Below, piece after piece: positions 25,364 to 51,232 of a DNA stretch of 64,000 bases. The stretch is from a virus (Duplodnaviria; Caudoviricetes). The position numbers and the translations under genes are program-made. The notes under the pieces are model-generated. The model was not told the DNA's origin, did not search any database, and worked only from the letters and a program-made list of their open reading frames with translations. The stretch's first letter is position 1. Each line of letters opens with the position of its first letter. The DNA is taken from the IMG/VR virus record IMGVR_UViG_3300049988_000286, positions 352,001 to 416,000 of that record, one strand, 5' to 3'.

Positions 25364-25520
25364 GCTGTTTCCTTCCTGCCCGCCGTGTGGCGGATTCCTT
25401 CCTTGATTGCAAGTTCGTGCTTGCGAATTCTTCGCCATTGAGGTAAACCATCATCTCTTCGTGACGAAGATGACTGCTCGGGGGCGGGGTCGAATTCACC
25501 CACAAGCAGGAGTTAGAGTT

Positions 25521-26051
25521 ATGAAGAAGATCAAGACTGTGTTCGCCATTGATCGTGCCACGCATCGCGCTACCGACGAGGTGATCGCGCAGTGGGTCAT
25601 GGATGGCGAGGGGGTGGCGACTATCAAGGTCGATGGCACATCCTGCGCAATCCGGGGTGGAAAGCTGTTTCGTCGCTACGATGCGAAGAACGGCAAGACG
25701 CCGCCGGAGGGCTGGGAGCCCTGTGAAGCCGCTCCCGATCCCCATACCGGCCATTGGCCGGGATGGCTGCCTGTCGAGGGTGACCCGGCGGGCAAGTACC
25801 ACCGGGAGGCGTTTGACGCCCTACTCCCCGATGGCACTTACGAGCTTGTCGGCCCCAAGGTTCAAGGAAACCGATACGGGCTCGACCGTCACGAACTTCG
25901 CCCGCATGGCGCGCAGATCGTAGAGGTTGCGAGGACTCGTGAGGCTCTCCTTGATTGGCTCACGAGCCATGAAGAGGAGGGACTGGTCTTTCACCGCGCA
26001 AATGGTGACATGGCCAAGCTTCGGCGCAAGGACTTCGGTCTGCGCTGGTGA
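25521..26051 (+). CDS. DUF5565 / RNA-ligase-like nucleotidyltransferase
   Basis: TIKVDGT (KxDG), GTYELVGPKVQGN, EGLVF and AKLRRKDF motifs. Confidence 0.75.
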   Translation: MKKIKTVFAIDRATHRATDEVIAQWVMDGEGVATIKVDGTSCAIRGGKLFRRYDAKNGKTPPEGWEPCEAAPDPHTGHWPGWLPVEGDPAGKYHREAFDALLPDGTYELVGPKVQGNRYGLDRHELRPHGAQIVEVARTREALLDWLTSHEEEGLVFHRANGDMAKLRRKDFGLRW

Positions 26052-27710: not shown

Positions 27711-27964
27711 TGTCGGTCCTAGTTCACGTTAACCGATCCCACATAGCGATGAACGCCAAGGATGGCGGCAATCGACCCGTCTATACTGTGAAGATGAAGG
27801 GGCGCACGCGTTACGCGCGTGAGGTGATCATCCATGGTCCTTCTCGGATGGTCTACGATGGCACGCAATTGAGTTGCGGGGCACGGGCTTGGTTGATCAG
27901 TGATGCAGAGGTCACGCTCGTGGATGAAATGTCTTTCCAAGAGGCCAGACTTGCCGTAGAGTAG
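27710..27964 (+). CDS. conserved phage hypothetical protein
   Basis: VHVNRSHI...GPSRMVY...LSCGARAW. Confidence 0.75.
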   Translation: MSVLVHVNRSHIAMNAKDGGNRPVYTVKMKGRTRYAREVIIHGPSRMVYDGTQLSCGARAWLISDAEVTLVDEMSFQEARLAVE

Positions 27965-27981
27965 TGGGGAAAGGTTCTCTG

Positions 27982-30717
27982 ATGGTTGATTATCGCCCCA
28001 CCGTGACTGTTCCGAAGACGCCGCTGCCCACGAAGGCGCGGATCGCCGATGAGCCTCGTCAGGTCGAGGCGTGGGCGGGTCTCCATGATCGCCTCGCTGC
28101 GAAGAACGAGGGTCGCCCAACTTACCTCCTCCACGACGGCCCCCCGTACGCGAACGGCAACATCCACATGGGGCACGCGCTCAACAAGGTGCTCAAGGAC
28201 GTGATCTGCCGGGGGCAGCGCGCTCTCGGCTTCGATGCTCGTCTGCACGCGGGGTGGGACTGTCGTGGTCTTCCAATCGAGTGGAAGGTCGAAGAGGATT
28301 GGCGCAAGCAGAAGCGTGACAAGAATGCCGAGCCGGAAGCATTTCGGCAGGATTGCCGCGACTATGCGGCACGGTGGGTGGATGTCCAGAAGGAGCAGTT
28401 CAAGCGGCTGGGGATCGTCGCCGACTGGGAGTCCGCGCCCTACGGTCATGGTTACCGCACGATGTCGCCCGAGATGTCGAGCCTGATCGTTTACCGCTTT
28501 CACCGCATGGTGGAGCGCGGCGATGTGTATTCGGCCAAGAAGCCGGTGTTGTGGAGTCATGTCGAGCGCACCGCTATGGCGGAGGCGGAGACCGTGGATC
28601 GCGAGCATCAGGTCGAACAGGCGTGGGTGACCTTCCGGATGTTCGCAGGGCCGCTCAAGGGCGACGATCTCCTTGTCTGGACCACCACGCCTTGGAGCCT
28701 TCCGAGCAATGTCGCGGTCGCGTACAACCCTGACATCGCCTACGGGCTTTACGAACAGCGCGGACGCCGGTTCGTGGTTGCCGACAGTTGTGTGGAACGC
28801 GCGCTGCAAAATGATTATCAGCGCCTCCGCGACATCGATCCGAAGACGGACTTCCCGCGCCATGCAGAGCATCCCCTGAACGATCTCGGCTACCCGGTTG
28901 GTGAGGACTGCGTGTCGCGGATCATGCCGGCATCCTTCGTCCGCGACAGTGCGGGAACGGGTCTTGTCCATGTCGCCCCCAGTCATTCCCGTGATGACTG
29001 GGAGGCTTGGAAGGCGCTCGATCACACGTTGACCTTCCCGACGACGATCAACGAGGATGGGCGCTACCACGACAGCCTTCCGCTGTTCGGCGGCACGGCG
29101 GTGGTCAAGGGCAAACGCCTCGGTCCCGCGAACGAGATGGTGCTCGATGCCATGGCGGAGCGTGGTACGCTCTACCGGCGCGAGACTGCTCCCCTGACCT
29201 TGCAGCACTCTTGGCGCAGCGACGCGGTTCTCCTCACGCTCGCCACTGATCAGTGGTTCATCCGCGTCACCGGGGAGGGCGGCGTGGTTGAACGTGTGCT
29301 TGCGGGATTGGCGGAGGTTGAGTTCTCCCCATCCAGCGGCGGCACGCGCATGGCCTCGATGCTGCGCGATCGTCCCGATTGGCTGGTGTCTCGTCAGCGC
29401 CTGTGGGGCACCCCCATGGCCATCTTGGCGCATCGTCGCACCGGCGAGCCCTGCCGTGATCCGGCCGTCTTGGGAGCGATCCATCAAGAGTTGATGGATC
29501 GTGGGGCGGATGCGTGGTGGAGCGAGTTCTCGGTTGAGGACATGTTCGCAGCGATCGGTCGCCCCGACGAGGCCAAGGACTGGCGGCGCGTCGATGACGT
29601 GCTCGATGTCTGGTTCGATTCTGCGTGTGTGCACGCCATCACTGGTGAGCGTGCCGATCTTGTCGTCGAGGGGAGTGATCAGAGCCGTGGCTGGTTCCAG
29701 AGCAGCGCTCTCGAAGGCATGGCCAACGATGGCGTGCTCCCGTACCGGGAAGTGCTCACCCACGGTTTCGTCCTTGACGGATCGGGGCGCAAGATGTCGA
29801 AGTCGGAGGGGAACGTCATTGATCCCATGACGGTGGTAGATCGTCTTGGCGCGGATGCGGTTCGTGTCTGGGTAGCTGCCACCGACGTTCGCGAAGACCT
29901 TCGTGTCAGTGATGCGGTGTTAGCCACCCATGCCGAGACGGTTCGCAAGGTCCGTATCACGCTTCGCTACCTCGTCGCGGCGCTGGCGGGTGTTACCGTT
30001 ACGCACGATCGGGTGATCGTCGATCCCCTCAACCGCTATGTGCTCAATCGTGTCGCGCATACCAGTGACGCGTTGTTCGCCATGCTGGCGGAGAAGGACT
30101 TCACCCGCTACGTGGCGACGATCGCGAATTTCTGCGCCAATGATCTCTCCGCCCTGCTGTTCGATGCCCGCAAGGACATCCTCTACTGCGACGGGCCGAG
30201 TGCGCGACGGGATGATTATCTCGCAACGCTCTCGGAGGTGTTTGAGCATCTGGTTCGCTGGGCGGCTCCCGTGATGGTTTTCGCGGCGGAGGAGATGTGG
30301 CAAGCCCTCCATCCAGAATCGAGCGTGCACGAGCAAGACTGGCTCCATCCCCACTGGTTGTGGAACGACGAGCGGTTGATGGAACGGTGGGCGAAGGTGC
30401 TCGATTATCGCTCGGAGATGTTGGGCAAGATTGAGGAAGTGCGTGCGGCGGGTGCGGTGAAGTCTAGCCTTGAATGCCATCTCACTGTCTTCGCCGATCC
30501 AGCGGCACGCCAGCACATGCTTGGGATCGATATGGCGGAACTCACCCTCACGGCTGGGGTGGATATCCGCTCCTTGGAGGGGCGCTTTACCGCACCGACC
30601 AACACTGTGGTGGAGCGTGTCACCACGCCGCGCTGTGACCGGTGCTGGCGGCACGTCGAGGTCGAGGCTGTCGAGGACTCGCATCTCTGTGATCGGTGCG
30701 CGGAGGTTGTGGCGTGA
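27982..30717 (+). CDS. ileS: isoleucyl-tRNA synthetase, type 1
   Basis: PYANGNIHMGH, WTTTPW and GTGLVH editing motifs, SRQR, KMSKS, C-terminal CDRC..CDRC zinc finger. Confidence 0.95.
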   Translation: MVDYRPTVTVPKTPLPTKARIADEPRQVEAWAGLHDRLAAKNEGRPTYLLHDGPPYANGNIHMGHALNKVLKDVICRGQRALGFDARLHAGWDCRGLPIEWKVEEDWRKQKRDKNAEPEAFRQDCRDYAARWVDVQKEQFKRLGIVADWESAPYGHGYRTMSPEMSSLIVYRFHRMVERGDVYSAKKPVLWSHVERTAMAEAETVDREHQVEQAWVTFRMFAGPLKGDDLLVWTTTPWSLPSNVAVAYNPDIAYGLYEQRGRRFVVADSCVERALQNDYQRLRDIDPKTDFPRHAEHPLNDLGYPVGEDCVSRIMPASFVRDSAGTGLVHVAPSHSRDDWEAWKALDHTLTFPTTINEDGRYHDSLPLFGGTAVVKGKRLGPANEMVLDAMAERGTLYRRETAPLTLQHSWRSDAVLLTLATDQWFIRVTGEGGVVERVLAGLAEVEFSPSSGGTRMASMLRDRPDWLVSRQRLWGTPMAILAHRRTGEPCRDPAVLGAIHQELMDRGADAWWSEFSVEDMFAAIGRPDEAKDWRRVDDVLDVWFDSACVHAITGERADLVVEGSDQSRGWFQSSALEGMANDGVLPYREVLTHGFVLDGSGRKMSKSEGNVIDPMTVVDRLGADAVRVWVAATDVREDLRVSDAVLATHAETVRKVRITLRYLVAALAGVTVTHDRVIVDPLNRYVLNRVAHTSDALFAMLAEKDFTRYVATIANFCANDLSALLFDARKDILYCDGPSARRDDYLATLSEVFEHLVRWAAPVMVFAAEEMWQALHPESSVHEQDWLHPHWLWNDERLMERWAKVLDYRSEMLGKIEEVRAAGAVKSSLECHLTVFADPAARQHMLGIDMAELTLTAGVDIRSLEGRFTAPTNTVVERVTTPRCDRCWRHVEVEAVEDSHLCDRCAEVVA

Positions 30718-41054: not shown

Positions 41055-41149
41055 TGGTACGCCCGGAGGGATTCGAACCCCCAACCGTTCCGCGATCTGC
41101 GGATCATGAGGTATAAGCTCACCGCTCTAACCAATTGAGCTACGGGCGC
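41055..41149 (-). tRNA. tRNA-Ile(UAU) with a long variable region (95 nt)
   Basis: GCGCCCG/CGGGCGT acceptor, canonical D-arm, GTGAG-CTTATAC-CTCAT anticodon arm, 23-nt variable region, TTCGAAT T-loop, CCA. Confidence 0.85.
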
Positions 41150-50969: not shown

Positions 50970-51045
50970 TGGCAGGAGCGCCGAGACTCGAACTCGGAAC
51001 CTACGGGATTGGAAGCCGGTGCTCTACCAATTGAGCTACACTCCT
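50970..51045 (-). tRNA. tRNA-Trp(CCA)
   Basis: A1-U72 and G73 identity elements, TTCCAAT loop; anticodon stem has only 3 pairs. Confidence 0.75.
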
Positions 51046-51052
51046 ACAGTCA

Positions 51053-51126
51053 TGGTTGGCACGGGTGGTAATGCTCCACCGTCTCGGCTTTATCAGAACC
51101 TTGCTCTACTTTTGAGCTACGCGCCA
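51053..51126 (-). tRNA. tRNA-Ile(GAU), atypical elbow
   Basis: CTGATAA loop, T-loop AGCATTA, D-loop AAAAGTA, CCA. Confidence 0.8.
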
Positions 51127-51156: not shown

Positions 51157-51232
51157 TGGTGGTGACGGCTGGGCTCGAACCAGCGACATACGCGTCATCA
51201 ACACGTCGTTCTTCCAACTGAACTACGCCACC
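51157..51232 (-). tRNA. tRNA-Ile(GAU) with G37
   Basis: ACGTG-TTGATGA-CGCGT anticodon arm, canonical D and T arms, CCA. Confidence 0.85.

Follow-up and report, generated by a model that had tools for sequence, protein, structure and literature searches.

The gene ileS, at positions 27982-30717 of the plus strand in a 64,000-nucleotide stretch of viral DNA (the window), probably encodes a genuine, isoleucine-specific type-1 isoleucyl-tRNA synthetase (IleRS1) of a diverged huge-phage lineage, and the enzyme is likely active. The window corresponds to bases 352001-416000 of IMGVR_UViG_3300049988_000286, a 499,572-bp IMG/VR megaphage record with a CheckV completeness of 100. The explanation judged probable is that of a working enzyme from a phage-only lineage of IleRS1 that huge phages have long carried and diversified. 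This explanation draws on sequence, phylogeny, synteny and the tolerance of a His-to-Arg change in bacteria, from which activity, isoleucine specificity and the effect of a second substitution, N665I, are predicted.

The protein is 911 amino acids (aa) long when read from the ATG at 27982. The open frame reaches back to a GTG at 27964 (27964-30717, plus strand, 917 aa), with the stretch GGGGAAAGG upstream of the ATG. Homologues align from M7 of the longer frame and the database copy has 911 aa, which identifies ATG 27982 as the true start and bears out the gene boundaries given by a first-pass annotation of the window. Residue numbers used here begin at the upstream GTG, and numbering from the ATG is obtained by subtracting 6; all positions in ileS are on the plus strand. 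Pfam matches comprise tRNA-synt_1 (PF00133, E = 3e-107), Anticodon_1 and zf-FPG_IleRS (PF06827, 24.8 bits), and TIGR00392 (NCBIfam ileS) gives 624.1 bits, narrowly past its cut-off of 621.4. The solved structures closest in sequence are 8c9e, an IleRS1 (518 bits), and 1ffy from Staphylococcus aureus (500 bits). An AlphaFold model built from the clade alignment has a mean predicted local distance difference test (pLDDT) value of 89.4 and template-modelling (TM) scores of 0.90 to 8c9e/8c9f and 0.84 to 1qu2, the S. aureus IleRS-tRNA-mupirocin complex. On these sequence matches and the predicted fold, the family assignment as IleRS1 is secure. A mupirocin-resistant enzyme of the IleRS2 type (MupA/MupB) was considered and rejected, as NF000257 and NF000258 give 237 and 221 bits with cut-offs of 1900; an IleRS2-type C-terminus is likewise ruled out, the C-terminus of the phage protein being the type-1 zinc domain. 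Near-identical DNA was absent from phage GenBank records, where tblastn returned only matches of ~33% identity, many of them in mislabelled bacterial contigs.

Three samples served for comparison: the 22 closest relatives (the clade), the 97 nearest bacterial IleRS1, and 150 representatives of 50%-identity clusters obtained by an exhaustive HMMER search. Invariance within the clade was read from a 21-sequence alignment (42-55% identity). The motifs quoted in the first-pass annotation (NIHMGH, GWDCRGLPIE, WTTTPW, HVAPSHSRDD, DWLVSRQR, EGSDQSRGWF, KMSKS, VRKVRITLRY and LSALLFDARKDILY) are all found verbatim in the translation, and its statement that HMGH, KMSKS, the Thr-rich editing peptide and the editing Asp are retained extends to the clade, in which the catalytic and editing residues concerned are invariant. 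The HIGH motif is present as HMGH (residues 68-71; 28165-28176), with H68, G70 and H71 invariant, and the KMSKS loop (residues 610-614; 29791-29805) corresponds to residues 595-599 of the S. aureus enzyme. The CP1 editing set is complete: the Thr-rich peptide WTTTPW (residues 239-244; 28678-28695) is followed by a clade-wide T245S, and the motif HVAPSHSRDD (residues 336-345; 28969-28998) keeps H341 and D345 next to a clade-wide G342S that turns GHG into SHS; N249 completes the set. The C-terminal zinc-binding domain (C891-x2-C894 ... C909-x2-C912; 30634-30699) retains R893-C894-W895, the wobble-base contact. Clade-invariant positions in total include P60, P61, H68, G70, H71, D99, T240-242, N249, H341 and D345, and also W481, E569, D572, Q573, W577, K610, K613, S614, C891, C894, W895, C909 and C912. 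Among these, P60/P61, D99, W481, Q573 and W577 are positions that we take to contact the isoleucyl moiety, as in Thermus thermophilus IleRS structures. With an intact frame, these catalytic, editing and zinc residues and the modelled fold, the active enzyme proposed by the first-pass annotation is predicted to be likely.

Against this conserved core stands an extensive replacement of residues that are otherwise nearly fixed. A test of 241 columns at least 97% conserved across the 97 nearest bacterial IleRS1 found that the phage IleRS departs at 49, compared with 33-66 in members of the clade and 1.1 on average in bacteria. The departures from the bacterial consensus exceed chance as judged from these columns, and a count of 49 within the clade range makes the phage IleRS typical of its clade. 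They are scattered over all domains (11-45% per domain). Twenty-one positions are fixed departures from the bacterial consensus throughout the clade; clade-wide changes include conversion of the strand HxYPHCWRxK to LTLQHSWRSD (residues 411-420), Y567V, H574S, G587L and Y660A/H/V. Six departures are private to the phage IleRS (clade range 0-12), and these include H101R, N665I, P96A, E172S and P687D.

The alignments sort the substitutions into three classes. C474L, F731L, A735 and R739I count as ordinary variation. DWLVSRQR (residues 472-479; 29377-29400) has Leu in place of the Cys of DWC, and position 474 is C in 112, L in 25 and V in 12 of the 150 representatives, L or V in the 22 closest relatives, and not invariant in the nearest bacteria. 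The motif LSALLFDARKDILY (residues 728-741; 30145-30186) keeps S729, D734, K737, D738, L740 and Y741; Leu occurs at 731 in 22 of 150 representatives, and positions 731, 735 and 739 vary among the relatives. Y732L in the same motif is rare, with L in 2 of 150 representatives, and the position is variable in the closest relatives. The clade signature consists of H574S (DQH to DQS, DQA or DQT), the replacement of Y660 by A, H, S or V, G342S and T245S. EGSDQSRGWF (residues 569-578; 29668-29697) keeps E569, D572, Q573 and W577, and S574 (codon AGC, 29683-29685) takes the place of H or Y. Position 574 is S in 15, A in five, T in two and F in one of the clade sequences, H in 97/97 nearest bacteria, and H130, Y10, F4, S5 and A1 among the 150 representatives. 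Among the representatives, S and A come from the clade itself and from sequences with phage-like neighbours, and the remaining S, A, T or C cases lie on phage contigs or in phage-like gene contexts. VRKVRITLRY (residues 660-669; 29941-29970) belongs to the first long helix of the anticodon-binding domain, which runs from 650 to 674 in the AlphaFold model. Position 660 is Y in all 97 nearest bacteria and 120 of 150 representatives, and A15, H6, S1 in the 22 closest relatives, so that Y660V is a clade signature at a moderately variable site as far as these samples reach. The third class, private to the phage protein in the same comparison, consists of H101R and N665I. The type-1 consensus used by the first-pass annotation therefore stands in part: departures from it are rare at 101, 574, 665 and 732, and it was too strict at 474, 660 and 731. 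The refuting condition that it named, the same residues being common in ordinary alphaproteobacterial IleRS, holds for C474 and fails for H101, H574, Y660 and N665.

The first of the two private changes lies in GWDCRGLPIE (residues 97-106; 28252-28281), which keeps D99, the Asp that binds the α-amino group, and carries Arg two residues further on. The R101 codon, CGT (28264-28266), is a single-base change from CAY. All three samples have His at position 101 (149/149 among the diverse representatives, 97/97 among the nearest bacteria, 22/22 in the clade); H101R is thus missing from 268 sampled IleRS, and His is also found in all 34 aligned IMG/VR phage IleRS. Residues 101 and 574 appear to be second-shell positions, since along the chain they lie close to the Asp and Gln that bind the substrate, and none of the literature searched described roles for the His101 and His574 equivalents.

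The same substitution occurs in bacteria. One genome per GTDB species and IMG/VR were scanned for DNA encoding GWDCRGLPIE with a CGN arginine, which recovered eight GTDB genomes (L003-L010), comprising four Elusimicrobiota, three uncultured or Ratteibacteria-like bacteria and one Beijerinckiaceae metagenome-assembled genome (MAG); the scan of IMG/VR gave none. Five of the eight genomes were examined, and in four of them, from Elusimicrobiota or uncultured bacteria, the Arg-bearing gene alone passes TIGR00392 (859-990 bits), although these genomes are MAGs in which a second copy could be missed. The other strong class-Ia gene in these genomes is ValRS (absent from G002), and in the fifth genome, G004, ileS is split over two contigs. 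The presence of Arg in the sole IleRS of four bacterial genomes indicates that the change is tolerated in a housekeeping IleRS. The phage protein and the IleRS of Elusimicrobiota and related uncultured bacteria thus share a His-to-Arg change two residues past the amino-group-binding Asp, but the bacterial enzymes keep DQH, YRKxRN and GHG, all their other motifs being canonical. They are 35-37% identical to the phage protein, which points to an independent origin, and on the sequences compared the change arose at least three or four times.

The second private change concerns the anticodon side. The I665 codon, ATC (29956-29958), is a single-base change from AAC, and position 665 is N in 22/22 relatives, in 97/97 nearest bacteria and in 142 of the 150 representatives (T3, L2, G2); Asn is replaced by Leu in two other phage IleRS, L017 and L034. 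An ungapped alignment from KMSKS equates N665 with N650 of S. aureus IleRS. In the P. megaterium IleRS2 (PmIleRS2), N647 and F651 lie near A35/U36, and N647A cuts kcat/KM 20-fold (PMC13752280), while N660 of yeast IleRS touches the anticodon-loop backbone (PMC11685878). N647 and F651 show the i, i+4 spacing of RNTxRF, and PmIleRS2 N647 and yeast N660 are equivalent to each other by numbering offsets. Assuming a loop three residues longer in IleRS2, N665 is probably their counterpart. A 25-aa PDB query around N665 gave no match, and with a 105-aa PDB query IleRS2 and yeast align only to ~20 residues short of the site. Two further residues that are kept, S729 and K737, presumably correspond to residues of the PmIleRS2 anticodon-binding domain on the A35 side, as judged from the motif. 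The wobble contact itself is unchanged. Arg888-Cys889-Trp890 of the S. aureus zinc domain read the wobble base (PMC3575796); they correspond to R893-C894-W895 of the phage enzyme, with W895 equivalent to E. coli W905 (PMC3575796), and this G34-reading Arg-Cys-Trp is kept in the phage enzyme and all 22 clade relatives. In Mycoplasma mobile IleRS, replacement of the wobble-stacking Trp by Arg adapts the enzyme to tRNA-Ile(UAU) (Taniguchi et al. 2013; PMC3575796). The phage IleRS co-occurs with a UAU-anticodon tRNA as well but, unlike the M. mobile enzyme, keeps the Trp, and a UAU adaptation of the M. mobile type is rejected on that account. A shift in anticodon recognition, which the first-pass annotation had put forward, is possible on sequence grounds and would come mainly from N665I and the clade-wide change at Y660.

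Phylogeny and synteny both place the gene in a lineage of phages. Its nearest relatives are ~22 proteins that share 41-54% identity with it; half of these come from contigs of 124-563 kb and the others from contigs of 4-62 kb. Identity falls to ~40-42% with the nearest bacterial IleRS and 30-33% with solved enzymes. A FastTree phylogeny built on 85 IleRS1 recovers the clade as monophyletic (support 100), with another set of huge-phage IleRS from IMG/VR as its sister (support 93) and the named alphaproteobacterial sequences apart from it; the terminal branch of the phage IleRS measures 0.67 against a median of 0.69. The neighbourhoods of all five relatives looked up are phage-type, with many small unannotated genes. 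Three or four of the five share flanking genes with the window, namely an RNA-ligase gene upstream, an 83-84-aa open reading frame (ORF) directly before ileS and a ~700-aa gene downstream on the opposite strand, which indicates that ileS was inherited within a megaphage lineage. In the window the RNA-ligase gene occupies 25407-26051 on the plus strand, 2 kb upstream from ileS (phrog_14301, E = 1.7e-51; Pfam RLIG1), and an RNA-ligase gene precedes ileS in four of five relatives (RLIG1 in L048 and L109; PF09414 RNA_ligase in L107). A search for related loci with the single protein gave no match, and one with the clade alignment gave 37 IMG/VR loci, none from the close clade. Three relatives have a gene, 137-178 aa long, that overlaps the stop codon of ileS (L048 12775-13188, L049 12720-13256, L109 12751-13164). 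The sister group of huge-phage IleRS shows changes of its own: the second Cys of the first zinc knuckle is Ser (CxRS) in L011, L012, L013, L017, L033, L034 and L045, and the wobble-stacking Trp is Arg, as in M. mobile, in L012, L017 and L034. In these sequences, CxRS and the Trp-to-Arg change suggest a lost zinc site and relaxed wobble reading.

ARAGORN predicts 41 tRNA genes in the genome together with a transfer-messenger RNA (tmRNA), and three tRNAs with Ile anticodons sit 10-20 kb downstream of ileS, all on the minus strand. The first (41055-41149; RF00005, 60.5 bits) has the anticodon UAU in the loop CUUAUAC and a long, class-II-like variable arm; the loop of this arm's hairpin, AGAUC, contains GAU, the anticodon of ordinary tRNA-Ile. 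The second is a tRNA-Ile(GAU) with G37 in the loop UUGAUGA (51157-51232; 62.4 bits). The third, missed by ARAGORN, is another tRNA-Ile(GAU) with a canonical anticodon loop and atypical D- and T-loops (51056-51126; 45.5 bits). Of the Ile codons in the long ORFs of the phage, 6% are ATA, a codon that ileS does not use. A tRNA-Ile(GAU) with G37 instead of A37 is found in at least 12 IMG/VR phage tRNA arrays (L080, L085, L087, L089, L091, L092, L096, L098, L099, L101, L102 and L104), and an IleRS is missing from four of the G37 records, among them a 340-kb record (99% completeness) and a 185-kb one (88%), so that G37 needs no phage enzyme. A search with an anchor protein from beside the tRNA array found no homologues on the large contigs of the relatives.

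Under the favoured explanation of a working enzyme, the lineage has swapped ~15-27% of the positions that are near-invariant in bacterial IleRS1 and kept every residue known for chemistry, editing, zinc binding and wobble-base contact. H101R, two residues from the Asp that binds the substrate, is rare but of a kind that housekeeping bacterial IleRS tolerate too. N665I takes away an Asn on the anticodon-binding helix and would probably loosen or retune the grip on the anticodon loop, and not alter which anticodon is read. Taken together, the sequence data favour an ordinary function for an enzyme whose lineage evolves fast. Several points weigh against this explanation: the margin of the TIGR00392 score over the curated cut-off is very slim beside the scores of the bacterial IleRS examined; the isoleucine-contact roles of the kept residues are carried over from the T. 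thermophilus structures; N665, N647 and N660 are equated through the spacing of motifs and offsets in numbering and not through a displayed alignment; and every one of the 22 clade relatives has H101 and N665, so R101 and I665 might be mildly deleterious or mark a phage-specific functional change.

A rival explanation is a private charging pair, in which tRNA recognition would have been retuned in the helix carrying 660 and 665 and in the acceptor/CCA-side strand 411-426, the enzyme preferring the phage's own atypical tRNA-Ile genes; the pair would sustain Ile decoding if the tRNAs or the IleRS of the host came under attack or ran short. We consider this rather unlikely, in both its mechanism and its purpose, and think it a shade more doubtful still that N665I in particular makes the phage enzyme one half of a pair with three non-canonical tRNA-Ile that insulates Ile decoding from host control or tRNA-directed defences. 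The idea gains from the three downstream tRNAs, each atypical in its own way (G37, an odd T-loop, UAU with a GAU-bearing long arm), from the clade-wide changes at the tRNA-side residues Y660 and 411-420, from the probable identity of N665 with an Asn important for anticodon-loop binding (PMC13752280; PMC11685878), from the nearby RNA-ligase gene and from the proposal by Al-Shayeb et al. (2020; PMC7162821) that variant phage tRNAs are charged by the synthetases of huge phages. However, the G37 tRNA-Ile also occurs in phages that lack an IleRS, a 578-kb phage with Asn-to-Leu at the 665 site has a canonical A37 tRNA-Ile(GAU), the retained wobble-stacking Trp disfavours UAU in E. coli IleRS (PMC3575796), and no tRNA-Ile was found within 10 kb on either side of ileS in five clade relatives. 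The comparisons revealed no covariation of the IleRS with tRNA features and so far lend the pair no positive support.

The same two substitutions could instead mark relaxed selection in an impaired or decaying copy with weak activity or facing loss, together with P96A, E172S and P687D. The invariance of H101 and N665 among the relatives, the six private departures at conserved sites, the TIGR00392 score barely past its cut-off and the 20-fold loss caused by N647A in PmIleRS2 (PMC13752280) would all fit decay, which is nevertheless improbable given that the 911-codon frame is intact with all catalytic, editing and zinc residues present, that six private changes lie within the clade range and the terminal branch is not unusually long, and that four bacterial species have the His-to-Arg change fixed in their only IleRS. 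It is more improbable again that H101R and N665I are consensus or assembly errors of a metagenome-assembled genome: both are single-base changes (CAY to CGT; AAC to ATC) and the exact protein is known from one contig only, but the six private changes are spread along the gene without a frameshift, His-to-Arg occurs naturally elsewhere, and consensus errors are rare at high-coverage positions. Least credible of all is a changed amino-acid specificity, that is, activation of something other than isoleucine. Two residues that neighbour Asp99 and Gln573, the substrate-binding pair, along the sequence have changed, yet the presumed isoleucine contacts and the valine-clearing editing site are kept, S574 is common to a whole clade that is otherwise IleRS-like, and R101 is present in housekeeping IleRS. 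For these reasons, and with 101 and 574 presumably second-shell, the shifted amino-acid pocket proposed in the first-pass annotation is not upheld.

Other features of the tRNA set deserve mention in their own right. Long variable arms (84-95 nt) occur on tRNAs that normally have short arms, namely Met-CAU, Arg-ACG, both Asn, one Cys, Gln-CUG, both Glu and Ile-UAU; these genes lie at genome positions 25686-68342 and 453376-453545, outside the window, and at 41055-41149 of the window, and the long-arm Arg, Cys and Gln tRNAs adjoin an isoacceptor of normal length. Two tRNAs with the anticodon CUA, of the amber suppressor type, lie outside the window as well (genome positions 102238-102314, plus strand, and 106351-106425, minus strand), and TAG stops 65 of 402 long phage ORFs. 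At 50970-51045 of the window (minus strand) ARAGORN reports a tRNA with the four-base anticodon tcca, for which the tRNA model shows two mismatched anticodon-stem pairs.

The phage IleRS shares with bacterial IleRS1 (TIGR00392; 8C9E of Priestia megaterium; 1FFY/1QU2 of S. aureus with tRNA-Ile and mupirocin) the domain order and fold, comprising the HIGH and KMSKS motifs, the CP1 editing site, a helical anticodon-binding domain and a Cys4 zinc domain with Arg-Cys-Trp; it differs from them in about a fifth of the near-invariant positions tested (49/241), including His101, His574, Tyr660 and Asn665. Synthetases of huge phages have been described as distinct from, though akin to, the host enzymes (Al-Shayeb et al. 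2020; PMC7162821), so the phage IleRS adds to a known group. It resembles them in being encoded in a genome of more than 200 kb with dozens of tRNAs and in being related to, and distinct from, the bacterial versions. That study (PMC7162821) contains no IleRS residue analysis; the IleRS described here falls in a defined phage-only clade that shows 21 fixed departures from the bacterial consensus. Genes of this kind are familiar from huge phages.

To our knowledge, almost none of the huge-phage synthetases has been characterised. The natural variants at the near-invariant His101, His574, Tyr660 and Asn665 form a concrete, testable set, for which clade relatives with His101 and Asn665 and the Elusimicrobiota IleRS with the same His-to-Arg change are natural controls. 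Should the phage enzyme behave as a normal IleRS, these "invariant" residues would be less essential than their conservation implies; should it prefer the odd tRNA-Ile of the phage, it would represent a natural orthogonal synthetase-tRNA pair.

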